Part shown: positions 8,501 through 49,246 of the stretch, one piece after another
How the letters are laid out: each line of letters starts with the position of its first letter
Position numbering within the stretch: the first letter of the stretch is position 1
DNA from: an uncultured Acidobacteriota bacterium
Lineage (GTDB): Bacteria > Acidobacteriota > Vicinamibacteria > Vicinamibacterales > Fen-181
Assembly: GCA_963744445.1 (NCBI GenBank)
Contig: CAVUTP010000015.1
Coordinates: forward strand, 17,744 to 81,743
Length of the DNA: 64,000 nucleotides
Direction of reading: 5' to 3'
Translations under genes and position numbers: made by a program
Notes under the pieces: model-generated
Told to the model about the DNA's origin: nothing
The model's database searches: none
What the model saw: the letters and a program-made list of their open reading frames with translations, nothing else

Positions 8501-9872
8501 CCAGCTGCGCGAGCGATTTCTCCGCGCGCGCCTCCACCTCTTCGGCCTCGCAGACGAAAATCACCGGCTGCTCGACGAAGTCCAAGAGCGAGGCGGACAA
8601 CTGCGCGCCTGGCTCCAGCAGCGCGGGGTAGTTGGGCGGAGGGGGCGGCGGCTCGGCTTCGAGCGGGAGGGAAAGGCCTCCGGGCTCGTCCTCATCATCG
8701 ACGTCGTCGTCTCCCTGCCAAGCCCAGGACAAATCCTGCTCGGACTCTTCGCTGCCCTCGCTCGTCGTGCCGGGGGTGCGGGAGGTGCCAGGGGTGCCGG
8801 AGGTGCTAGTGCCCGAGTCGCCCCTGCTATAGGTGCTGATGGTGCTCGTGCGGGAGGTGCCGGGCGTGCTGGTACTGTAGATGCCCGGTCCCGCTGCCCG
8901 TGCCCGTGACCCACTGTCCACTGTCCACTGTCCACCGGCCACTGGCTTCCCGCCCTCCGCCCGCCCCCCTCCCCCTTCGCTCGCGTGATCACCTGCGACC
9001 TTCGGCGGGACAAGCCCGCCCCCCGCCCTCCCCCCTCCGCCTTCTCCGGACTCACTGCCCGCTGGCCACTGCTCACTGGCCCTTGGCCGCCCGCCCTCCG
9101 CCCTCCGCCCTCCGCCTTCGTCTGTAAACACCTCCCGTAGCGGCACGATCTGGACGCGTTCGATCTCCCCCGTCGAGCGCTGGGAGGCGGGGTCGTAATG
9201 GCGGATGGACTCGACCGTGTCGCCGACGAAGTCCAGGCGGACCGGCTGCGCGCTGCCGGCGGGAAACACGTCAATCACGCCGCCGCGCACGCAGAACTCG
9301 CCGTGCTCGTCCACGGGGTCCTCGCGGCTGAAGCCCGCGTCGAACAGCAGGTCCGCAAGGGCGTAGGGATCGACGTCGGCGCCCGTGCGGATTTCGATGG
9401 AGGCGCGAAGCAGCCGATCGGGCGGGCTCAGGCGCGGCAGCAAAGCGGTCGCGGAGGCGACGATGACCCGCGCGACGCCCGTGGCCGCCGCGTGGAGCGC
9501 GCGGGTGCGCTGCGAGAGCACGCCAAGGTGTGGCGAGAGGCCGCGGTAGGGATCGACCTCGTGCGAGGGGAACGGCAGCACGGCCTGCTGCGCCGCGGCA
9601 TCGGACAGGCCCTCCATCGAGGCGAGGAAGAAGCGGATGTCGTCCGTGTACTGCTCGACGTCCGCGTCGGTCGGCACCACCACGACGAGCGTCTTCCCCC
9701 GGGTCCCCGGCCGAGGCGCCGGCGCGTGGCGCGTGGCGGCAGTCGCCAGGTAGAGCGCCTGGGCGGCGGCCGGCAGACCGGTAACGACGCCGCCCGGGGC
9801 CTGGTCGCCCAGGTGCGCCCGCGCGGTGGTGTTCTTGAGAAGCGCCTGGAGGGTCAGGGACGTTGTAGACAC
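5553..9872 (-). CDS. mfd: Transcription-repair coupling factor Mfd with long low-complexity insertions
   Basis: GEFCVRGGVIDVF, DHVVHVDHGIG (RID), GDVGYGKTEVA, VVDEEQRFGV, TATPIPRTL, QLRGRVGRS, DLEIRGAGNLLGGEQSGH, TRCF domain. Confidence 0.97.
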   Translation of the reverse strand: MSTTSLTLQALLKNTTARAHLGDQAPGGVVTGLPAAAQALYLATAATRHAPAPRPGTRGKTLVVVVPTDADVEQYTDDIRFFLASMEGLSDAAAQQAVLPFPSHEVDPYRGLSPHLGVLSQRTRALHAAATGVARVIVASATALLPRLSPPDRLLRASIEIRTGADVDPYALADLLFDAGFSREDPVDEHGEFCVRGGVIDVFPAGSAQPVRLDFVGDTVESIRHYDPASQRSTGEIERVQIVPLREVFTDEGGGRRAEGGRPRASEQWPAGSESGEGGGGRAGGGLVPPKVAGDHASEGGGGRAEGGKPVAGGQWTVDSGSRARAAGPGIYSTSTPGTSRTSTISTYSRGDSGTSTSGTPGTSRTPGTTSEGSEESEQDLSWAWQGDDDVDDEDEPGGLSLPLEAEPPPPPPNYPALLEPGAQLSASLLDFVEQPVIFVCEAEEVEARAEKSLAQLASSHREMIGRGGNPPPPEQLFAPLEEIASLVELGTRLDELEIVEGGGRGAEGGTDPTVASESSTSGTSTPSTSSTSTPSTSSTPSTTPVTMSCRPAVEFRGRIADWVADIKRAREAGETVLFVAATPGRAERTVEVLREYELIAVPVFVDPRQRDAVPARTEMAHAASVLVATGALSRGFHLPSAALQIFAETDVFEEERRPSERRRSAAKTFLSDFRDLKVGDHVVHVDHGIGVFVGLKQIRIDPYGPDTQEFLELRYAGEDKLFVPVERLDLLQKYTGATRPPLDRLGGTTWERAKTRVKKAMRDMAEELLKLYAQRRALAGHAFSPDTHWQEEFEGAFEYDLTPDQQTAVADIKSDMESSTPMDRLLCGDVGYGKTEVAMRAAFKAVMEGKQVAVLAPTTVLAFQHLKTLRERFAGFPVRIDMVSRFRSKAEIKQSLQDLADGKVEVIVGTHRLLSKDVVFKDLGLLVVDEEQRFGVAHKERIKQMRRKVDVLTMTATPIPRTLNMSLVGIRDMSVIETPPKDRLAIQTNVVRFDQQLIARVVRNEIARGGQVYFVHNRVQSIYAIGDLLQRLVPEAKVVVAHGQMGEEALERAMVDFVAKKFDVLLATTIVENGLDIPNVNTIVINRADRYGLSQLYQLRGRVGRSDRPAYAYLLIPPGNTLSPVARKRLAAIREFSDLGSGFRVAALDLEIRGAGNLLGGEQSGHIEAIGFDMYMKLLEETVRELKGEEIEDETRAIVNLGIDLRIDENYVPEQNQRLSLYRRVAGSRTAEELERIVAEIEDRYGPMPTEVLNLVDYGRIRILADRLGIEKVDRQGSLVVFTFKGQGGPDPNRVIRLVQQRPEITLAPPSAIKLDLKPRSQRGPLAMPGRGAGQGPTGRPSHGEAGRGERAVAPGSQSGRTVGPAFPGTAGSGRGKLLTRGAAGAARSWWTARATEGEVKPGFRKEAIVRPVKDDPRAEGGVLGRVTEILSDLLGPG

Positions 9873-10217
9873 GGGAGAGCTGTCACTTCACGAGGGAACA
9901 ACTTCAGGCTGCCTCGATTAGATATTGGCAACTGGTCAATTGCCAAGCAAGCCTTCACGCCACTTGGCGAGGGAGCAAGGGCAACTGGCCAATTGCGTCG
10001 CAACCGAATAGACAATTGCCACCTGGTCAATGGTCAAGTGTTCGTGTCTCTTCAATCATACCCGTCGTGGAGTAGTGGAGTATACGTGCGCACAAGCGAT
10101 GCAGATGACCTTGCCGGCGGGGGACGCCGGCCGCCAGCGGGTGTCAAGGCGGAGACGACAGCACGAGGGCACAACTGAATGAGGCTGAAGAGTTCCTTTC
10201 CCCTTGCACGCGGAAAT

Positions 10218-10570
10218 GGCGGAGCGGCCGCCGTAAGGGGCGGGTGGTTCTCGCCAAGCGAACCCGTTGTCGGCGACCCCCGGCAGGGTAGAAGAAACGG
10301 GGCGAGCGACCAACGTCCCCGCAACACCAGGGTCGGGAGACGTGGGAGGACCGCTAGTCGAGAGTCTCCCGACCCGGTCTTGCAGACCACCGACGGTAAG
10401 TCGCCGCCCCGTTTCTTTGGCAGGGCAGGGGGGAGCGGGCGAGCGCCACCCGCCCCAGGCGGCGTTGGCCAAGCGAACCCGTTGTCGGCGACCCCCGGCC
10501 CTTCGACTGCGCTCAGGGTCGCCCCCAGAATCGTCGAGGGGCGGCAGGGTAGAAGAAACGGGGCGAAATG
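10218..10570 (+). repeat. Structured ~250-bp repeat copy A (about 10218-10465) plus a partial second copy with a 46-bp nested insertion
   Basis: Same sequence as the reverse complement of 15650-15890 and 23656-24172; nested inverted repeats. Confidence 0.9.
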
Positions 10571-10582
10571 TCCCCTTCCGCC

Positions 10583-11668
10583 CTACTTCGTTCCTGAGGC
10601 TGCCGGCCCCAAGGCGGGCATCTTCCCCTGCGACTCGACGATGCGCTTGGCGATCAGGTTCTCCACGACGGCGCCGTTCCGGATCGTGCCGAGGAACGCC
10701 GCTCTCAAAAGCTGCTCGCGGCGGTCGCGCAGCGCCTGGCTGATCGCGGCCTTCACCTCGGGCATGCCCGGGTCCTTCTGGCCGGCCGCGTCTTTGCCCA
10801 AGACCGTGACCACGGTGTAGCCGCCGTTGAGGTTCACGACTCGCGCCGAACCGGGCGAGAGCTTGAGCACGGTGTCGCGCAGCGGCGGAGGGGCTTTCTG
10901 CAGGGCCGACAGCGGCACGAAGCCGAGGTCCCCGCCGCGCGCGGCCGTTTCGGGGTCCTCGGAGAACTCCGCGGCGACATTCTGGAACGACGCCCCGGTC
11001 TTGAGCCGCTCCATCACCATTTGCACCTTGGCCGCGGCCTCCTGGGGGGTCGTCGCGTCGTTGCGGCTGGCCGCCTGGGCGTCCCGGACGGGGGTGATGA
11101 CGATCTGCGCGATGCGGTACGCGTCCTCCGTGCGGTTGAACTGCGCGCGGTTCGCCTCGAAGAACGCCGTGATGTCCTGGTCGGTGACGGTGACCTTCGA
11201 CGAGATTTCGCGTTCGAACAGCTTCTGCACCAGCAGATCGCGCCGCAGCCCCTCCCGCATGTCGCCGGCCGTCAGGTTCCGCTGGGTCAGTTCCCGCTGG
11301 AAGGCCTCGTCGGGGATGTTCTTGCGGGCCTCGAGATACGCGGCGTCGAGCTCGCTGGCCTGCACCTCGATCTTCAGTTCGCCGGCCTTCGCGAGCAACA
11401 GCTCCTGGGCGATGATCTCGTCGAGCAGCGCAAGCTTCGCCGCGGCGGCCTCCTCCTCGGACGGGGCCTGAGGGGCCTGGGTATTGCGGCGGTACGCTTT
11501 CTCCACCGCCTCACGGGTGATCTCGCGGCCGTTCACCACCGCCCACGCGTCGGCCGACACGGGCGGGGCAGCCGGTTTCGATTGACACCCCAAACCAAGG
11601 GCGGCAAGCGCGAACGTGGAGAAGAAGGCCAGGCGGCAGCGCCGGACAGCAGGCAGCACGATGATCAT
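10583..11668 (-). CDS. SurA N-terminal/PpiC rotamase lipoprotein
   Basis: Lipobox-like LGLGC, WAVVNGREIT, YRIAQIVI, FQNVAAEFSED..ARGGDLG. Confidence 0.85.
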   Translation of the reverse strand: MIIVLPAVRRCRLAFFSTFALAALGLGCQSKPAAPPVSADAWAVVNGREITREAVEKAYRRNTQAPQAPSEEEAAAAKLALLDEIIAQELLLAKAGELKIEVQASELDAAYLEARKNIPDEAFQRELTQRNLTAGDMREGLRRDLLVQKLFEREISSKVTVTDQDITAFFEANRAQFNRTEDAYRIAQIVITPVRDAQAASRNDATTPQEAAAKVQMVMERLKTGASFQNVAAEFSEDPETAARGGDLGFVPLSALQKAPPPLRDTVLKLSPGSARVVNLNGGYTVVTVLGKDAAGQKDPGMPEVKAAISQALRDRREQLLRAAFLGTIRNGAVVENLIAKRIVESQGKMPALGPAASGTK

Positions 11669-11819
11669 CCGCCTATTCTACGCGCGGGGACAGCACTGTC
11701 ATTTGTTGATTTCTTGAGTTGTTGATCTGTTGATTTGATTGGGTGATTTAGTGATTGGTGTTGGGTGTTTGGATGTTCAGCGCAGGCGCGAGGGCAGGCT
11801 CAACTGGATAAGGCCAAAG

Positions 11820-12299
11820 TCATAGCCCTTTCATTCTCCGGATCATCCCGGTGGTGGAGTACCCCTCCGCGAAGCGGATCCGCACCACCTTCCCGCCCCG
11901 CGCCTCGACGATGTCGCGGCCAATGATGCGGTCCGCGGCCCAGTCGGCGCCCTTGACGAGCACGTCGGGCTGAACGGCCGAGATGATCGCGTGGGGATCG
12001 TCCTCGTCGAAGACGACCACCGCGTCCACGCAGGCCAGCGCGGCGAGGACCTCGGCGCGGTCGCGCTCGTTGTTGATGGGGCGCGACGGCCCCTTGATCG
12101 CGTGCACCGACCGGTCGGAATTGACAGCGACGATCAGCGCGTCGCCCTGCGCCCGCGCCTCCTGCAGGTAGCGCACGTGCCCCGGGTGGAGCAGATCGAA
12201 CACACCGTTGGTGAAGACGATGCGCTCGCCCCCGGCCCTTCGGGCTGCCGCCCACTCGGCCGCCGCTTCGCGATTCAGGACAGGGGCAAAGGGGGTCAT
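11820..12299 (-). CDS. rfaE2: D-glycero-beta-D-manno-heptose 1-phosphate adenylyltransferase
   Basis: [37 protein letters not shown]; start MTPFAPV at 12299. Confidence 0.92.
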
Positions 12300-12301
12300 C
12301 G

Positions 12302-13717
12302 TCACTTGTTGATCTTCTGACTTGTAGATTTGTTGATTGATTGGTTGATTAGCTGATTTGTTGATTGGCGATCTACAGATTTCAACCTTACATTCTCCGA
12401 GAACTCCCAGGTGTGGCGGGGCCGGTGGATGCCCACGTCCTTGATGCGCGACTTCACCCGGAACGTGTAGAGCGACCGGTGGTAGTCGTAGGGCGCGCCG
12501 TCGCGGCGGTGGGCGGCGACGTCCAGCTTGTAGGTGCCCTCCACCAGGTCGAGGCCGTCGATCCGGAAGGTCACGGTGCCCTCTCCCTCGATCGACACGG
12601 GCAGGAACTCCTCGATGTCGGTGTTCGTGCCGTAGACGCAGAGGCCCTCGGCATTGAAGAGGCCGACGCCGAAGACGAAGTCCTTGACCTCCCGCAGGGC
12701 GCGGACGCGCAGGCGCACGGCGGCGGGCTCGCCCGACTGGAACACGTGCCTCATTTCGCCGGCCGCGTCGAGCAGCGCGACGTCGATGATCTCCACGTCG
12801 CGCGTGCCCCACCGCCCGTCGGTCGGCTTGTTCGGATCGACGGCCGGCTCCTGGCCGCCCGCCTCCGACGCGGCCTGGGGCTCGGCGGCCGGCATCGGCG
12901 GCGCCTCGCCGCCCGACGTCTGCGCCGCCACGCGCGCCTTCGCGTCCGCCGCCGCGAGGTGCTTCTCCTCGGACTTCGCCACGTCGGAAATGTAGGCCGA
13001 CACGACGCGGCGCGGGTCGCCCTCGCCGCGGATGCGCCCGGCGTCGAGCCAGAGCACCTCGTCGCAGAACTTCTCCACGAGGTTCAGCGAGTGCGTGACG
13101 AGGAGGACGGTCTTGCCGCGCTTCCTGAACTCCGCGAACTTGTCGAGGCACTTGTGCGTGAACGACTCGTCGCCGACGGCCAGAACCTCGTCTATCAGGA
13201 GCACGTCGGGGTCCACGTTGATGGCCACGGCAAACCCGAGGCGCATGTACATGCCAGACGAGTAGGTCTTCACCGGCGCGTCGATGAAGTCCTGCAGCTC
13301 GGCGAACTCCACGATCTCGTCGAAGCGTTTGGCCACCTCGCGCTTCGACAGGCCGAGCATGATGCCGTTGATGAAGACGTTCTCGCGTCCGGAGATCTCG
13401 GGGTGGAAGCCGGCGCCCAGCTCGATGAGCGCGGAGATGCGGCCCTTCACGTCCACGGTGCCCTCGGTCGGCTTGGTGATGCCGGCCACGAGCTTGAGCA
13501 TGGTGCTCTTGCCCGACCCGTTGCGGCCGATGATCCCGTAGGTTGCGCCGGTCTTCACGCGGAAGGAGACGTTCTTGACGGCGGCAAAGGTCTCGTCGGG
13601 GCGCAGGTCGCGCAACACGGTGCCCGACAGCAGCGCGCTCTTCAGCGTGGCGAACTGCCGCCGGTTCCCGAACCGCCGGTAGACTTTCGTAACGCCTGTG
13701 GCTTCTATGGCGAACAT
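12302..13717 (-). CDS. wzt: Polysaccharide ABC exporter ATP-binding subunit with Wzt_C domain
   Basis: [42 protein letters not shown]; C-terminal Wzt_C-like domain. Confidence 0.9.
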
Positions 13718-13898
13718 GATGTCCTACGATTGGCGTCTGCCCCGGCGTTCGCTTGTGTTGACGGCGAGGCTGTTGTGTTCGCGGGTCCTGCCGCCGTTTT
13801 CCCCCACGGCACCCCAGCGCGGCTGCCGCGCCGGGGACCCCGCCCGGCTTCCCTCGAACAGCCTGATCCCCGATCCCTGACCCCCGATCCCTGTTCTG

Positions 13899-14696
13899 TC
13901 ACACTTCCTCAGCGAACGAGTCCCGGAGCCGGTCGAACAGGAAGTAGCCCAACAGGAAGAGAACGACGCTGCAGGCGCCGAGGACCAGCAGCCAGAACCA
14001 GTGCCCGACGGGCCCCGGGTAGAACAGGATCTCCTGGTACGTGATCGCGAGGTGCGTGAACGGGTTCAGGTTGAGCAGCGTCTTGCCCCACGGCTGCTTG
14101 TCGAACAACTTCATCTCGTAGATGATCGGCGTCGAGAAGAACCAGAAGGTCATCAGGTTGCCGAGGATGTCCTTGACGTCGCGGAAGTGCACGGTCAGCG
14201 CGGAGAGGATGAGCGCGAAGCCGAGGGTGAGGACGAACTGCACCAGCAGGGCGACGGGGAACCACACCAGGCCGGCCGGGTCGGGGATCTTGTTGTAGGC
14301 GACGAGAAAGATCGCGAGGATCGGCAGGCCCAGGAGGAAGTGCACGCCGTTGGCCAGCACCGTGACGATGGGCAGCACCTCCGCCGGGAAGAGGACCTTC
14401 TTGATCAGGTTCCCGCCGGAGATCAGCACGTTGGACGACTCGAGCAGCGACGAGGAGAACCAGGTCCAAGGCAGGATGCCGGAGAAGAGGAAGATCGCGT
14501 ACGGGTAGGTGTCGGGCGATCGATTGGGCAGTATCACCGAGAAGACGAACGAGTAGACCAGCAGCAGCAGCAGCGGGTTGATGAACGACCAGAAGAAGCC
14601 GAGCACGGACCCGCGGTAGCGCGCCTTCAGCTCGCGGGCGACGAGGCTCTGGATCAGCGGACGGTAACGGAGCAGGGATTTCAGGTTGTGGAACAC
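13899..14696 (-). CDS. wzm: Polysaccharide ABC-2 exporter permease
   Basis: RELKARYRGSVLGFFWSFINPLL, LIKKVLFP, FRDV, LNP; hydrophobic; adjacent to wzt. Confidence 0.9.
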   Translation of the reverse strand: MFHNLKSLLRYRPLIQSLVARELKARYRGSVLGFFWSFINPLLLLLVYSFVFSVILPNRSPDTYPYAIFLFSGILPWTWFSSSLLESSNVLISGGNLIKKVLFPAEVLPIVTVLANGVHFLLGLPILAIFLVAYNKIPDPAGLVWFPVALLVQFVLTLGFALILSALTVHFRDVKDILGNLMTFWFFSTPIIYEMKLFDKQPWGKTLLNLNPFTHLAITYQEILFYPGPVGHWFWLLVLGACSVVLFLLGYFLFDRLRDSFAEEV

Positions 14697-14840
14697 GCGG
14701 TGGAATCTCGAAAGGCTTCAGGCTTCTGGCTTCGGGCTCTAGAGCGGCCAAAGGTCTCGGGCTTCAGGCTGTTGGGCCTCGAGCCCGGCCTCGTGCTGGA
14801 GCCGAAGCCTCCGGCCTCTCCAGAGCCTGAAGCCTGGAGC

Positions 14841-17869
<3,029 letters not shown>

Positions 17870-20434: not shown

Positions 20435-20564
20435 ATCGCTTCGCAATTCACCTGGTGGAGGTCACCTGTCACTTGGCAATTGACCACTTGGCCATTCTCT
20501 ATTTGAACTTGACCATATCCGACTCAAATAGACAGTCGCCAAGTAGACAATCGTCAAGTGGCGG

Positions 20565-22448: not shown

Positions 22449-22819
22449 CTGCGAGATCCTCCACCCGGACGCGTCGCCCGCGGCGCGGCCGGCTCGATGG
22501 CGGACGAGGGCAAAGGTTGCAAAAACATGAATTTATACCATGCGAGGCTGAATGGTGGCTAGCTTGCAAAATCGACAGGGGGTGGGTCCGGCCTGGCGTG
22601 ACTCAAACAGAAGCGCCGGGGCAAGACGAACCCGAGGCGTGGCGTAAGGAGCGCGGCGCAGGGCCGCCGCCTGGGGCGCTCCGCGCCCGCCCCGTGCCGG
22701 ATTCTCCGGCCGCCTCCTGGGTGCGGGTGGCGCTCGCCCGCTCACCCGCTGTCCTGCCAAAGAAACGGGCCGGCGACTCACCGTCGGTGATCTGCAAGAC
22801 CGGGTCGGGAGACTCTCGA

Positions 22820-23479
22820 GTAAGCATCCCCCGGCAGAGCCGGGGGCATTACAAATGTGAGCCGCTCAAAGCGGCATGAGGGGGTCGCTAACGCGACCCC
22901 GCCGTTTGGGGCCACCTGACGGTGGCCATCATCTCCACAGCGCCAGTTGGTCCAAGCGGTTGTCCTCCGTCTCCTGCCGCTTGATGTACTCGCGGATGAC
23001 GGCCTCGTCACACCCGACCGTCGACACGAAGTATCCCCGCGCCCAGAAATGCTCGCCCACAAGTTGCGCTTTCGTTCTCCGTACACCCGGGCCAAGTGGA
23101 TGGCGCTCTTCCCCTTCATGAACCCGATCACCTGCGCCACCGCATACTTCGGCGGGATCGCGATCAGCATGTGCACGTGGTCGGCCAGCAGATGCCCTTC
23201 CTCAATGCGGCTCTCCTTCTGCTTGGCCAACGCCCGGAACACTTCCACCAGGTGTTTTCGCAGCTGCCCGTAGAGGACTTTGCGCCGACACTTCGGAATG
23301 AAGACGACGTGATACTTGCAGTCCCAAACCGAGTGGTTCAGACTCGCGAGTGTGTCCATCGTGAAGCTTCCTTTCGTGTGCTTGGCGGCTCACGGTCGGA
23401 AGTATCCACATGGACACACTCCCTTACACGTCAAACTTCTACTGCCTCCCCGGCAGAGCCGGGGGGCCTCCCTCTTTAG
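22820..23479 (-). mobile_element. IS200/IS605-family element (tnpA only), 660 bp
   Basis: Matching subterminal hairpins CCCCGGCAGAGCCGGGG at 22828-22846 and 23448-23464; empty site GACTCTCGA|CTAGCGG seen in sister repeats; no target duplication. Confidence 0.92.
22929..23359 (-). CDS. tnpA: Y1 (HUH) transposase TnpA; 1-nt frameshift near 23062
   Basis: CKYHVVFIPKCRRK, ADHVHML (HUH), KGKSA; FWARGYFVSTVG...YIKRQ in a shifted frame. Confidence 0.93.
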
Positions 23480-24234
23480 CTAGCGGTCCTCCCACGTCTC
23501 CCGACCCTCATGGTTGCGCGACGTGGGTCGCTCGCCCCGTTTCTTCTACCCTGCCGGGGGTCGCAGCCCACGGGTTCGCTTGGCGAGCACCACCCACCCT
23601 GACGGCGGCCGCTCCGCCGATGCGCCCCGCTCCGCCACGGCACGGATCTGCGGCGCCTGGGTGCGGGTGGCGCTCGCCCGCTCACCCGCTGTCCTGCCAA
23701 AGAAACGGGGCGGCGACTTACCGTCGGTGGTCTGCAAGACCGGGTCGGGAGACTCTCGACTAGCGGTCCTCCCACGTCTCCCGACCCTCGTGTTTGCGCG
23801 ATGTTGGTCGCTCGCCCCGTTTCTTCTACCCTGCCGGGGGTCGCAGTCAATGGGTTCGCTTGGCGAGCGCCACCCACCCCTAACGGCGGCCGCTCCGCCG
23901 ATGCGCCCCGCTCCGCCTACGGCACGGCCTGCGGCGCCTGGGGCGGGTGGCGCTCGCCCGCTCACCCACTGCCCTGCCAAAGAAACGGGGCGGCGACTCA
24001 CCGTCGGTGGTCTGCAAGACCGGGTCGGGAGACTCTCGACTAGCGGTCCTCGCACGTCTCCCGACCCTCGTGTTGCGCGACGTGGGTCGCTCGCCCCGTT
24101 TCTTCTACCCTGCCGGGGGTCGCAGTCCACGGGTTCGCTTGGCGAGCACCACCCACCCCTGACGGCGGCCGCAGGCCGTGCCGTAAGAGGAGCGGGCGAA
24201 TCAGCGCAGGGGCGGCGGGCGGCGGCGGGCAACT

Positions 24235-25269
24235 TCAGGCGACGATGACGGCGGCAGAACCGCGCGGGACCGCGACGCCCACGCGCGAGGCGACCAACCC
24301 CGCGGCGGCGAACGCGGTTTGGGCCGCATCCGCTTGCGACGGGTCCACGGCGGCCAGGAGGCCGCCCGAGGTCTGCGGGTCGAATAGCACCGCCGCAAGT
24401 TCCGGTGTCAGGCTCGGCGCGAGGTCGGCGGTCGCCGCAAAGTGCTCTTCATTCGTCTTCATCCCGCCGGACCGGTTGCCCCGGGCCAGGGCCAGCACGC
24501 CCGGAATCAGCGGGACCGAAGCCGCCCTGACGCTCAGAGTGACGCCACTACCCTGCGCCATCTCGGTCGCATGGCCGATGAAGCCAAAGCCCGTGATGTC
24601 CGTGCACGCGTGGACGCTGCCGGGCGGCAGCGTGCGCAGCGCGGCGGCGGCGGCGCGGTTCAGCGTCACCATCACCTCGACCGCGGCATCCTCGGTGTCC
24701 TTCGGCGCACGCCCGAACTTGACCGCCGTCGCGACAACGCCCGTTCCGAGCGGCTTCGTCAGGAACAGCACGTCGCCAGGCCGCGCCCCAGCATTCGTCC
24801 ACACGTCGCGCGGCGAGACGACGCCGGTGACCGCGTAGCCGAACTTGATCTCGGGGTCCTGCACGGTGTGCCCGCCGAGCAGCGCGACGCCCGCCTCGCG
24901 CAGCACGTGCAGGCCGCCGAGGAAGATCTCGCGAATGGTCTCGGGCTCGATGTCCTTGGGGAACCCCGCGACGGCGAGCGCGGTCAGCGGCGTGCCGCCC
25001 ATCGCGTAGACGTCGCTGAGCGCGTTGGCCGCGGCGATGGCACCGTAGGTCGCCGGGTCGTCCACGATCGGCGTGAAGAAATCGACCGTCTGCACCAGCG
25101 CCCGGTCCTCATCCCACTTGTACACACCCGCATCGTCCGCGGTCCGGTAATCGATGAGGACGCGGTCGTCGGAGGGTGCCGGCATGTCGCCCAGGACCTG
25201 GGCGAGCTCGCCCGCGGCGAGCTTGCTGGCTCAACCCGAGCAGGAAACCATCTCGGTCAGACGCTTCAT
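24235..25269 (-). CDS. selD: Selenide,water dikinase SelD (selenoprotein; Sec at codon 13)
   Basis: ATG 25269 reads MKRLTEMVSCSG-UGA(25231-25233)-ASKL in frame with DDAGVY, VQTVDFFTPIVDDP, ANALSDVYAMGG, DPQTSGGLL. Confidence 0.95.
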
Positions 25270-25412
25270 GGGTCCTTCGCTGTCACTTGGCAACCTGGCA
25301 ACTGTCCATTTGCCAAGTGGTCAATCGTCAACTGGCCAACTGACTTGTCGGTCCTGGCAACTTCGCAACTGTCCATTTGCCAAGTGGTCAATTGACACCT
25401 TGCCACCTGACG

Positions 25413-26279
25413 CTATTTCCCCGTCATTCTCTCGTAAAGCCGCTGCAGTTCGTCCTCGGACTTGAACTCGACCTCGATCTTGCCGCCCTTGCGCTTGCGC
25501 AGGATACGGACCGGCGTGCCCAGCGCCATGCGGAGATCCTGCTCGGCCGCGCGCGTGTGCACGTCTGAGGGCTTCGCGGTCTTCGGCTTCGGCGGGCCCG
25601 CGAGCAGGCGCTTCACGAGCGCCTCGGTGTCGCGCACCGACAGCCTCTTCGCCACGACTTCCGCCGCGGCGCGCGCGATCGCCGCCTCCTGCTCGAGCGC
25701 GAGCAGCGCGCGCGCGTGACCCATCGAGAGCACGTTGGCCGACACCTGGTCGCGCACCGACTGCGGCAGGCGCAGCAGCCGTACGATGTTCGCGATCGAC
25801 GAGCGGTCCTTCCCCACCGCCGTCGAGATCTGCTCCTGCGTCAGGTCGAACTCGTCGGCGAGGCGCCGGTACGCGAGCGCCTCTTCCATCGGGTTGAGGT
25901 CCTCGCGCTGGATGTTCTCGATCAGCGCCATCTCGAGCAGCCGCCCCTCCTGCCCCGGCTCGATGTCCTTGACGACGACGGGGACCTTGAGGAGGCCGGC
26001 GTGCTGGGCGGCGCGCCAGCGGCGCTCGCCCGCGATGATCTGGAAGCCGCCGTCGACACGCCGCACGATGATGGGCTGGATGATGCCGTTGGCGGCAATC
26101 GAGCGCGCCAGCTCCTCGATGCCCTCCGCGTCCACCTGCTGCCGCGGCTGGTAGCGGTTGGGCAGGATGCGATCGACGTCCACTTCGAGGGTCGCGCCGC
26201 GCGGCGGCTCGGGAACGTCGGGGATCAGCGCGCTCAGGCCTTTGCCGAGGGCGGGGCGTTTTTCGATCAGCCGTGTCAT
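25413..26279 (-). CDS. parB: Chromosome partitioning protein ParB
   Basis: ALGKGLSALI, PNRYQPR, IIAGERRWRA, ENIQREDL, HTH. Confidence 0.96.
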   Translation of the reverse strand: MTRLIEKRPALGKGLSALIPDVPEPPRGATLEVDVDRILPNRYQPRQQVDAEGIEELARSIAANGIIQPIIVRRVDGGFQIIAGERRWRAAQHAGLLKVPVVVKDIEPGQEGRLLEMALIENIQREDLNPMEEALAYRRLADEFDLTQEQISTAVGKDRSSIANIVRLLRLPQSVRDQVSANVLSMGHARALLALEQEAAIARAAAEVVAKRLSVRDTEALVKRLLAGPPKPKTAKPSDVHTRAAEQDLRMALGTPVRILRKRKGGKIEVEFKSEDELQRLYERMTGK

Positions 26280-26316
26280 TTCTCGATCTCTTGAGTTGTT
26301 GATCTTTCGATTGATT

Positions 26317-27138: not shown

Positions 27139-27288
27139 TATCAATAACTTACAAGGAATTTGCCGAGACGGGCCGCACGAGCACGAGGGCAATCAGGATA
27201 GCAGATCCATTTGTTGATTTAACGATTTGTTGACTTCTTGATTTTCATTTTGGCTTATTGCAGAGATTACGAGTGCTAGAGTATTGCC

Positions 27289-28227: not shown

Positions 28228-30070
<1,843 letters not shown>

Positions 30071-30165
30071 TCTTTGATTGGTTGATTCCTTGATTGGTTG
30101 ATTTGATTTCTTGATTGCTGGATTTTTTGATTGTCTCTCGAGCCCTCCACCGGGACGGTCAAATT

Positions 30166-31713
30166 TCATTTTCCAACGCAGAACTTCGAGAAGATTTCCC
30201 CCAGCAGCTCATCCGTCGTCCGCCGCCCCGTGACTTCTTCGAGCGTGGCGCGGGCGCGCTGGAGATCCGCGAGGATCATCTCCTCAGGCACCGTCTCACC
30301 GGCGGCTGCGTTCGCCAACAGCTCGCCGGCTGCATCGAGCGCCTCCCGGACCCGGCCCAGGAGCTCGATGTGCCGCGGGTTGCTCAGTGCGGGGGGTTCC
30401 GCAACGCCAGACCACCCTAGTTCTCTGTTGATTGACCTAATTAGGTCGTTTACCCCACTTCCACTCAATCCAGAGACAGCCACGACGTCGAACCCGCTTG
30501 CCCGCCGATGTCCCGGAGGGGCATCGGGCGAAGGCGGGTCTTCCAAAGTCTCCCGACCGCCAAAGTCACCCGCTTGCCCGCCGAAGCCTGCGGGAGGCCT
30601 TGGGCGAAGGCGGGACCTCACCGGCAGGTCGGCCTTGTTGCAAACGACAACCCGAGGGCCGGCCGCCGTGTCCTCGAGCAGCCGCAGGTCCTCGTCCTCG
30701 AGCGGCGCCGAACCGTCCAGCACCAGGACCACCAGGTCCGCGGCCGCCCGCGCCCGGTCCGCGCGCGCCACCCCCTCCCGCTCCACGGGATCGGCACTTG
30801 CCCGCACGCCCGCCGTGTCTACCAGCGTCACCCGCAGCCCGTCGAGCGTCACCACCTCCGTCAGCAGGTCCCTCGTCGTCCCGGGCACCTCCGTCACGAT
30901 GGCACGATCGTGGCCGACCAGCCGGTTGAACAGCGTGGACTTCCCCACGTTCGTCCGCCCCACCAGTGCAACCGTCGCGCCTTCCCTGACCAGGCGGCCC
31001 TGCGTCCCTTCGTGGACGAGCGCCTCGACTCGCTCCCGGACACCCCGGAGGATCGCTTCGACCTCCCCCGGCCCCACGAACCGGTAGCCCTCGTCCGGGA
31101 AGTCGATGGACGCCTCGAGCCGAGCCGACAAGGCGAAGAGCTCGCGCTCGATCTCCGCGAGCCGGCCGCTCAGAGTCCCGGTCAACTGGTCGAACGCCAC
31201 CCTCGCCTGCAGGGGCGTCGTCGCTTCCACCAAATCCCGCACCGCCTCCGCCTGCGCAAGGTCCAATCGGCCGTTCAGGAACGCCCGCAGCGTGAACTCC
31301 CCCGGCCCCGCCGGGCGCGCCCCCGCCTCCACGGCCGCCTGGACGATTGCGCCTGCAATGACGATGCTCCCGTGCAAACTGATCTCGACGACGGCTTCGC
31401 CGGTATAGGACGCGGGGGAGGCGAAGGGAAGGACAATCACGTCGTCCCGGATCATTGGTTGATCTGGGGATTTGTTGAGTTGTCGATTTGATCTGTTGAG
31501 TTGTTGATTGCCGATTTGGGAGGGTGCGGCGAGGGAGCCGGGCGCCGGGACGGCGATGCGAGCGAGGACCGCGCGCCTGGGCGTGAAGGTGACGGGCCGC
31601 TCCAGCAGCGACAGGGCGATGGGGAAGGCCTGGGGACCGCTCAGCCTCACCACGGCCAGCCCACCCCGCCCTGGGGGGGTTGCCACAGCCACAATGGTAT
31701 CTGACGGCGTCAT
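30166..31713 (-). CDS. mnmE: tRNA modification GTPase MnmE (TrmE) with two repeat-derived insertions
   Basis: [60 protein letters not shown]. Confidence 0.97.
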
Positions 31714-31870
31714 TTGTTGATTTCTTGACCCTGGTGATTTCTGATTGACTGGTGGATTTGGTGATGTGCTGATTGAAGCCGCCCCCGCCGGGCCGGCACA
31801 TCAATCGATCAATCAACCAATCGATCAATCAATCAACAAATCAACAAGTCAGAAGATCAACAAATGACAT

Positions 31871-41303: not shown

Positions 41304-41402
41304 CGCGGATCAGGGGTCAACGTGGCGACTGACCAGGGAGCCATTTGCGAAATGGTCAGTTGTTCCCTCGTTCCCTGACAGCTCCGTGCCCGAATCCCTG
41401 CC

Positions 41403-49074: not shown

Positions 49075-49246
49075 GAGGATGATCCTCGTCAGGTTCCAAG
49101 GGAGCGACGCTGTGCCAGATCAGGGAACAAGGGAACAACTGACCACTTGGCAAATTGCCCCACGTGGCCGCATTCGAAACCCCAGATAGCCAGTGGCCAA
49201 ATAGACAATTGCCAAATAGAGAATTGCGAAGTGATCCCCGTCCTCC

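Follow-up and report, generated by a model that had tools for sequence, protein, structure and literature searches.

A probable family of MITE-like foldback elements with a conserved inner core in uncultured Acidobacteriota

A structured repeat that recurs in the window, the 64 kb stretch of DNA that was analysed, is read here, with moderate confidence, as a non-autonomous foldback transposable element, MITE-like in character, of uncultured Acidobacteriota, probably of the order Vicinamibacterales. The two halves of the unit are inverted copies of each other, so that either single strand could snap into one long hairpin; a transposase encoded elsewhere would cut at the inverted ends and paste the unit into intergenic DNA, with most insertions falling just downstream of genes. 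The family is new, but its kind is ordinary. Two things are unusual: a conserved, covarying core that is carried in varying terminal shells, and the role of the element as a target of two families of insertion sequence (IS).

The repeat family in the window and the source genome

Five full copies (A to E) and one partial copy lie in the window. They and the parts associated with them are listed below, where R1 denotes our first covariance model, built from the 21 copies of the source assembly (G000).

10210..10475, + strand (the GTAG-reading strand): copy A, family fam1, full length; R1 275 bits over model positions 1-266; 93% identity to copy E by BLAST; equals C15:27953-28218 of G000
10458..10575, + strand: partial copy beside A, 5' part only; from inverted repeats I12-I14 and reading against the alignment
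15641..15905, - strand: copy B, full length; R1 279.6 bits
22664..22715, no strand assigned: outer left arm of the C-D-E block, homologous to and pairing with the right arm; from direct reading
22700..22819, - strand: copy C as far as the apical loop, its 3' half on the GTAG strand; repeat family D2 (22711-22822); BLAST 94% to query 58-163
22820..23479, - strand: IS200-like insertion sequence, 660 bp long, in the apical loop of copy C; from Pfam Y1_Tnp, ORFs and boundaries given by intact copies
23480..23626, - strand: copy C, 5' half on the GTAG strand; repeat family D3 (23480-23599); BLAST 96% to query 161-293
23640..23907, - strand: copy D, full length, tandem unit; R1 273.7 bits; Tandem Repeats Finder period 280
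23921..24186, - strand: copy E, full length, tandem unit with extended outer arms; R1 285 bits; folds
24163..24203, no strand assigned: outer right arm of the C-D-E block; from inverted repeat I15 and direct reading

The copies recorded in a first-pass annotation of this DNA were thereby all recovered, with C, D and E within 22700-24186 on the minus strand, and a repeat finder also linked 10218-10432, 15651-15878 and three units in 22711-24158. On direct reading, the partial copy beside A is split at ~10499-10544 by a small palindromic module of ~46 nt. Just beyond the arms of the C-D-E block lies an 8-nt direct repeat (22656-22663 and 24204-24211), a length of at least 8 nt being reached also in 15% of mismatched flank pairs.

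The first-pass annotation had allowed that the copies might be restricted to the window, and they are not. BLAST with copy E against the whole source assembly (6.38 Mb in 26 contigs, 78.5% complete) identified 21 near-full fam1 copies on 7 contigs at 71-100% identity to copy E, the lowest value belonging to a single divergent copy, as well as fragments on 2 more contigs. All 21 score 174-285 bits with R1, the model built from these same copies. Given 21 copies across 7 contigs, the family is neither a local duplication nor a misassembly. Outside the source genome, a BLAST search of 40 relatives for close homologues gave merely two matches of 27-33 nt, and an exact-pattern scan of 185,579 species genomes gave none; among metagenome contigs the exact pattern matched one, L047.

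Called unrecognised at first pass, the repeat also matches no known Rfam family. At gathering score, Rfam 15 found nothing in the whole window except a tRNA. With E up to 10, the region 22600-24300 gave only five chance-level hairpin matches and a sixth, to the uxuA RNA (25.9 bits against a cut-off of 66.8, E 0.03), which falls within the IS200 insert. Seven loci with ancestral-type copies gave nothing with E up to 1.

Genes were called from codon-position GC bias, a crude guide to both overlap and context. By these calls none of 22 copies overlaps a predicted gene, save for 26 nt shared with a weak 82-aa ORF at one locus. The earlier description of the repeats as intergenic and without a credible ORF thus holds for the copies themselves, which lie essentially outside predicted genes, but not for the interval 22716-24200 as a whole, which contains the frameshifted Y1_Tnp gene of the IS in copy C. 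When 18 loci were sorted by context, 16 proved to have a gene 3' end on at least one side. The flanking genes run one way at 11 of the 18 loci, with the GTAG strand sense at 8 and antisense at 3; they are convergent at 5 loci and divergent at 1, and the context of the last is unresolved. The lean of 8 against 3 is not significant, and repeats that are tolerated between genes usually favour gene ends.

Every copy is predicted to form one long imperfect hairpin with small side branches (z about -10). The minus strand of copy E folds at -176 kcal/mol, whereas its shuffles average -120.7 (z -11.0, with 0 of 200 as good), and its plus strand at -167.3 kcal/mol, against a shuffle mean near -121 (z -9.4). 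The outer stems and arms of fam1 are inverted repeats; in copy E the arms (23907-23950 and 24153-24196), first noted as ~35 bp long, extend over ~35-44 nt and are 80% complementary. Inverted-repeat search, folding and alignment likewise confirmed the features that had been described before: stems nested in one another, side hairpins, and a GTAG directly ahead of the middle stem. Almost every copy in the 21-copy alignment has this GTAG, ~80 nt inside the ~260-nt unit.

Standard pairs make up 97.1% of the 1505 pair cells in this alignment, compared with 36-48% paired when the partner is slid by 1-3 columns. Double changes are found at six pairs (11 cells), where the shuffle mean is 1.7 and 0 of 500 shuffles reach 6; because the copies are related, this is only modest support for covariation within the genome. 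The first-pass annotation had also held that several outer-stem variants can pair, as G-U, on the GTAG-reading strand only, and strand asymmetry is partly supported. Non-Watson-Crick pairs carried by at least 3 of the 21 copies occur at six positions, all of them G-U on the GTAG strand, while A-C cells never exceed 2 copies per paired position; across lineages, the GTAG strand has the more stable predicted fold in 36 of 37 copies, the difference averaging 10.4 kcal/mol. Against this, changes seen in a single copy are about equally G-U (11) and A-C (10), and isolated cores of 90-129 nt have no consistent strand asymmetry.

At 23480-24172, Tandem Repeats Finder detects 2.5 copies at a period of 280 bp, with 93% matches. 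This is the period that had been described for a tandem array spanning 22716-24200, but it begins only at 23480, because the IS200 insert interrupts copy C. A second 280-bp array, at C5:409238-409816, has by BLAST the same unit as C-D-E, including the ~40-nt joint, at 97-99% identity. The arrays may have formed by local duplication of a unit or by movement of a multimer, the data fitting either. A promoter scan of the array returned 0 sites. A deletion derivative is also present in the source genome, as a cluster of fragments at C5:209048-209275 found by BLAST. In this genome, then, copies have built up, some have been homogenised or replaced and some have shed internal parts, and 280-bp head-to-tail arrays have formed at two loci.

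Insertion sequences in the hairpin apex

The insert in copy C carries a minus-strand Y1 tnpA gene that one frameshift divides into 22778-23359 and 22929-23060, with Y1_Tnp Pfam matches of 87.3 bits (1.1e-24, profile 1-93) and 26.7 bits (6.6e-06, profile 93-121). By comparison with intact copies, the insertion into the apical loop is exact, with no target duplication or deletion. A similar short hairpin lies close to each end of the insert, as is expected of the IS200 family. The IS is single-copy in the source assembly and its ends have no likeness to those of the repeat, and it is therefore a guest and not the parent. Contigs from 4 metagenome DNA runs yielded short pieces only, none of them bridging a joint; one contig, of 636 nt, begins at 22819.

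A second guest is found in G020, a genome of the sister genus g4. There, two pairs of ends have a spacing of 1846 bp, each pair bracketing a 1.58-kb element of the IS110 family (Pfam DEDD_Tnp_IS110, 108.7 bits; Transposase_20, 47.7 bits). The IS is 100% identical in two copies whose host arms differ at about 13 positions, and in both hosts it occupies the identical apex position, with a 2-nt repeat at the junction. An autonomous copy with a RAYT/Y1 or IS110 gene between the same arms had been envisaged at first pass. Y1 and IS110 genes do occur between arms, but they are secondary insertions into the hairpin apex and not autonomous parents. Since the IS110 element sits at one apex position in two diverged copies, and an IS200 element in the loop of copy C, hairpin tips are landing pads for other ISs: the exposed apical loop is a preferred landing site, of an IS200/IS605-type element here and of an IS110-type element in the sister genus. 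The hairpin tip thus offers a safe place to land to two unrelated ISs that are site- or structure-specific.

Insertion of IS110 elements into repeated extragenic palindromes (REP) is treated in the excerpts of PMC12288879 and of a preprint (10.64898/2026.03.19.712850) drawn on here, and the bridge RNA mechanism of IS110 in those of PMC11208160. The G020 element, which takes one fixed position in the hairpin apex of two different copies and has a 2-nt junction repeat, agrees with reports of IS110 elements in repeated palindromes, such as ISPpu9, ISPpu10 and IS621. Unlike theirs, its target is not a short REP but a probable foldback transposon of ~270 bp, of which it is a guest and not the mover, and the known REP-targeting habit of IS110 is thereby extended to a larger class of target.

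Neither guest accounts for the repeat. That the repeat is a derivative of an IS110 end or bridge RNA is contradicted by the IS110 boundaries, which lie inside the apex, by the presence of an identical IS in differing arms, and by the duplications of 9-12 bp at sister repeats. PATEs derived from IS200/IS605, and Nezha, resemble the repeat in being rich in hairpins and devoid of ORFs, and a Y1 transposase gene is associated with the repeat in the window; in contrast to PATEs, however, the sole IS200 is nested in a loop and differs from the repeat in its ends, and the sister family carries terminal inverted repeats together with flanking duplications. The IS200/IS605 mechanism produces neither of these. 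With the single IS200 sharing no ends with the repeat, and with such termini and duplications in the sister family, a PATE of IS200/IS605 origin is also not supported.

Evidence for mobility

In genus g4 (G020, G021 and G012), elements of ~268 bp end in inverted repeats of at least 16 nt. The 16-nt terminal motif used for searching, CCCACNCCCAGTTTCG, occurs 33, 21 and 4 times in G020, G021 and G012, respectively, and 0 times and once in two other g4 genomes; a control pattern gives 0-1. Direct repeats of 9-12 nt flank 6 of 16 g4 copies at a distance of 2-6 nt from the conserved ends; one further copy has a direct repeat of 12-13 nt with one indel. Of 240 mismatched left/right flank pairs used as a control, none has a repeat as long as 9 nt and a single one has 7 nt. 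Duplications of 9-12 bp at 6 of 16 copies, compared with 0 of 240, show that the g4 sister family transposes like a MITE, and they are the mark of genuine transposition with staggered target cuts. The outermost 2-4 bases vary among the g4 copies, and G020 also has an internally deleted form of 91 bp.

The picture in the source genome is less sharp, with flanking direct repeats of at least 9 nt at 3 of 19 loci, compared with 6% of 342 mismatched pairs. Its best two cases, a 10-nt repeat 41/41 nt from the anchors and a 9-nt repeat at 44/44 nt, hint at a full unit that includes outer arms of ~40 nt; the unit measures ~240-265 bp without the arms and roughly 320 bp with them. The metagenome contig L047 is syntenic with window positions 9169-17501 at 83-92% identity and lacks the region of copy A, in a complex 1.7-kb difference that includes a SurA-like gene and is not a clean filled/empty site; a difference at fam3 is likewise not a clean one. 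The first-pass suggestion of a non-autonomous mobile element is nonetheless supported by the dispersal of the repeat, by its lack of an ORF, and by the g4 homologues with terminal inverted repeats and 9-12-bp duplications.

Searches of G000, G020 and G021, assemblies that are 70-89% complete, turned up no autonomous element whose ends match. Several candidates were set aside. A fragment pair at C5:517346-518918, considered as an autonomous copy, encloses a host HD-domain-like gene and no transposase. As possible partners, an IS110-like gene of G000 is unrelated and adjoins the tmRNA gene, DDE_Tnp_1 elements of G020 and G000 have other ends, and rve matches are situated away from the repeat ends.

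In the excerpts of a MITE census drawn on here (PMC11602168), MITEs are defined as 50-800 bp long, with inverted repeats of at least 10-15 bp and flanking duplications, for which a range of 2-10 bp is given. The sister-family duplications, at 9-12 bp, lie at or above the range in those excerpts. Like the MITEs Correia, ERIC/IRU and MITEAba12, the repeat is small, lacks an ORF, is present in many dispersed intergenic copies, has terminal inverted repeats and can form hairpins, and target-site duplications are seen in the g4 sister family. Unlike them, it is without a known parent IS and is self-complementary along its whole length, not at its ends alone.

REP, BIME and REPIN sequences are, like the repeat, extragenic palindromes that are often 3' of genes, sometimes clustered or in tandem, and targets of IS insertion, whereas the repeat is 5-10 times longer. 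The first-pass annotation had taken GTAG at the foot of a stem as a mark of handling by RAYT enzymes, and an oversized REP or REPIN copied as single-stranded DNA by a RAYT (an HUH Y1 enzyme) that recognises this GTAG would fit its presence before the middle stem in nearly all copies. One RAYT-like protein is encoded in G000 (Y1_Tnp, 25-27 bits), and the source genome, where the 3 of 19 loci stand against 6% of controls, has no clear target duplications. The gene concerned (C15:1455-2279, outside the window) is, however, not flanked by the repeat, BLAST finding none in the first 4.2 kb of C15, and no cognate RAYT adjoins the repeat. Nor do the two occur together over the 21 genomes of the same taxonomic family, of which 10 have RAYT-like matches and 5 have homologous elements in an R1 search: RAYT relatives are strong in G002, G003, G007 and G014, where R1 found no element, and weak or absent in the element-rich G021, G012 and G008. 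Moreover, GTAG is not terminal but ~80 nt inside the element, and HUH enzymes leave no long duplications of the kind seen, at 9-12 bp, in the sister family. We consider RAYT handling very unlikely.

A SINE-like, retro-mobile structured RNA, which would move by an RNA intermediate and a reverse transcriptase and leave variable duplications and head-to-tail multimers, appears more improbable still. The duplication length that varies from 9 to 12 nt, the variable outermost bases, the strand asymmetry, and the tandem units with an identical junction at two loci are all consistent with it. Yet the perfect terminal inverted repeats, of at least 16 nt, are of the kind that cut-and-paste transposases require, no ribozyme or other RNA family was matched, and some DDE transposases, too, leave duplications that vary over 9-12 bp.

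The inner core across lineages

Besides R1, which found elements in five genomes of the same taxonomic family, a second model, built from the sister family and with 12 candidates scored per genome, found elements in at least 5 of 150 genomes sampled from the order, including two further families. The genomes whose sister families share a core of ~110 nt belong to the Acidobacteriota, probably to the order Vicinamibacterales, and at least four taxonomic families of this order have elements with the core. The single copies of G003 and G007 are not syntenic, which rules out a conserved gene locus for them.

All members have the same core layout, with a lower stem of 9-13 bp, a short second stem, an asymmetric, purine-rich internal loop and an apical hairpin, and two motifs are conserved, a GACGG-type motif on the 3' side of the internal loop and a G-rich motif that opens the apical loop. 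In the lower middle stem, 3 of 8 pairs have double changes in several lineages (for example AU:6 with CG:5, and CG:8 with GC:5). Cross-lineage consensus folding from MAFFT was usable for this stem only; because helices were shifted in the MAFFT alignment, covariation in the upper stems was taken from single folds alone. The outer stems are entirely different in sequence among lineages and retain their pairing. With a core common to at least four families and with covarying stems, the structure itself appears to be maintained. Conservation of the inner core across families, with terminal repeats that vary from lineage to lineage, is atypical for a MITE.

The apex has a different history. The counterpart of copy B at the corresponding site of contig L047 has arms that are about 90% identical (counted from the alignment) within flanks of ~88% identity, and its outer stem has one compensatory double change; its apex, of ~60-75 nt, is unrelated to that of copy B. 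The L047 type of apex recurs in one copy of the source genome (C14:153540) and in fam2, a second family of that genome with 3 copies (C14:618914-619210, C5:506443-506741 and C6:159475-159707), so that the apex of 20 of the 21 G000 copies is a lineage-specific replacement. Copy B is 96% identical to its paralogues and thus closer to them than to its L047 orthologue, a pattern indicative of either gene conversion or a renewed insertion at this site.

The core could itself be a functional structured RNA, such as a stabiliser or terminator at the 3' end of messages or a protein binder, that was spread by transposition and is a transposon only secondarily. In favour of this are the layout and the short unpaired motifs, conserved over at least four families with covarying stems, the steadier GTAG strand (36 of 37 copies, mean 10.4 kcal/mol), the six high-frequency non-Watson-Crick pairs that are all G-U on that strand, and the loci that adjoin gene 3' ends (16 of 18, with the GTAG strand sense at 8 and antisense at 3). 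But the 8-to-3 split is not significant, isolated cores lack the strand asymmetry, there are no promoter-like sites in the array, and there is no Rfam match, ancestral-type copies included. Furthermore, the conserved apex was swapped for an unrelated one in 20 of 21 G000 copies, and these multiplied nonetheless, while the conservation could stem from horizontal spread of a transposon without function. We therefore think this alternative unlikely, and continue to favour a MITE-like foldback element.

Whichever holds, the conserved, covarying core is a concrete candidate for an RNA or DNA function. A bolder and unlikely proposal is that the ~110-nt core is a functional RNA or single-stranded DNA module packaged in different inverted-repeat shells in each lineage, with the payload, and not the ends, under selection. 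If true, this would be a mobile non-coding element selected for its payload, whose role could be that of an RNA element at 3' ends or of a module by which some trans-acting enzyme recognises the repeat.

A full-text search found no foldback family of this kind in print for the Acidobacteriota; the supplements of the MITE census (PMC11602168) may list it. As a foldback element, the repeat would add to this phylum a documented foldback transposon superfamily that is spread through an order. For annotation, it would account for the long structured blocks that these genomes have between genes, and for their tandem arrays, with no need for a new mechanism. As to the source of the DNA, the ParB protein encoded in the window is closest to those of MAGs labelled Acidobacteriota / Vicinamibacterales, at 60-66% identity.

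Insertions into hairpin repeats

In another of the genomes examined (G020), hairpin repeats carry a 1.58-kb IS110-family element in the apex at two loci:

L170, G020 C2:558700-560960, IS110-family element in hairpin repeat apex
L171, G020 C10:49900-52150, IS110-family element in hairpin repeat apex

The two elements are identical and occupy the same apex position in host repeats that have diverged, and the insertions show a 2-nt repeat at the junction. Upstream of the recombinase gene lies a non-coding stretch of about 330 nt, a candidate bridge RNA.

Two further insertions are found in the window, in copy C of the hairpin-forming family fam1 and in the partial copy beside copy A, respectively:

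22820-23479, IS200/IS605-type element, tnpA frameshifted, a similar hairpin close to each end
about 10499-10544, small palindromic module of ~45 nt within a side hairpin

The IS200/IS605-type element is present as a single copy in the whole assembly. A 636-nt contig from one sediment metagenome run begins at its boundary, which suggests that the element occurs in other contexts there. A 3-nt repeat apparently accompanies the insertion of the palindromic module. This module recurs elsewhere: one copy in G012 (L196) carries it as an insert, one in G085 (L193) has it as its outer stem, and several copies in the source genome (G000) are flanked by it.

The copy A region and neighboring repeat families

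A short stretch at window 10050-10120 repeats the beginning (11834-11900) of the gene that spans 11800-12255. The 1.7 kb between the duplicated stretches (10119-11834) holds both copy A and the partial copy beside it, together with a SurA-like gene (10583-11668), and is missing from the syntenic metagenome contig L047.

Two more long-hairpin families, fam2 and fam3, adjoin or sit between fam1 copies:

fam2, G000 C14:618914-619210, C5:506443-506741, C6:159475-159707
fam3, L047 5063-5279

Fam2 has the superfamily's ancestral apex motif. At the window site corresponding to fam3 (about 12231-12396), short TTGATT-type repeats stand in its place.

Other loci and short repeats

Two loci lie elsewhere in the source genome:

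C15:1455-2279, outside the window, RAYT-like Y1 gene flanked by ~30-nt direct repeats
C3:273420-275344, tmRNA gene followed, where the contig ends, by an IS110-like recombinase gene

The Y1 gene is unrelated to the hairpin family; it is adjoined by a short ORF (L045 1998-2456), which from its sequence we took to be a putative PIN/VapC-like gene. The C3 locus is possibly an island integrated at ssrA.

The window also holds two types of short repeat, the second with units of about 15 nt:

11691-12366, 26268-26312, 27199-27243, 30059-30132, 31444-31868, degenerate TTGATT-like octamer arrays, intergenic
2842-2921, 9913-10043, 20524-20563, 25288-25419, 41323-41379, 49120-49236, GGTCA/TTGCCAAG-like repeats
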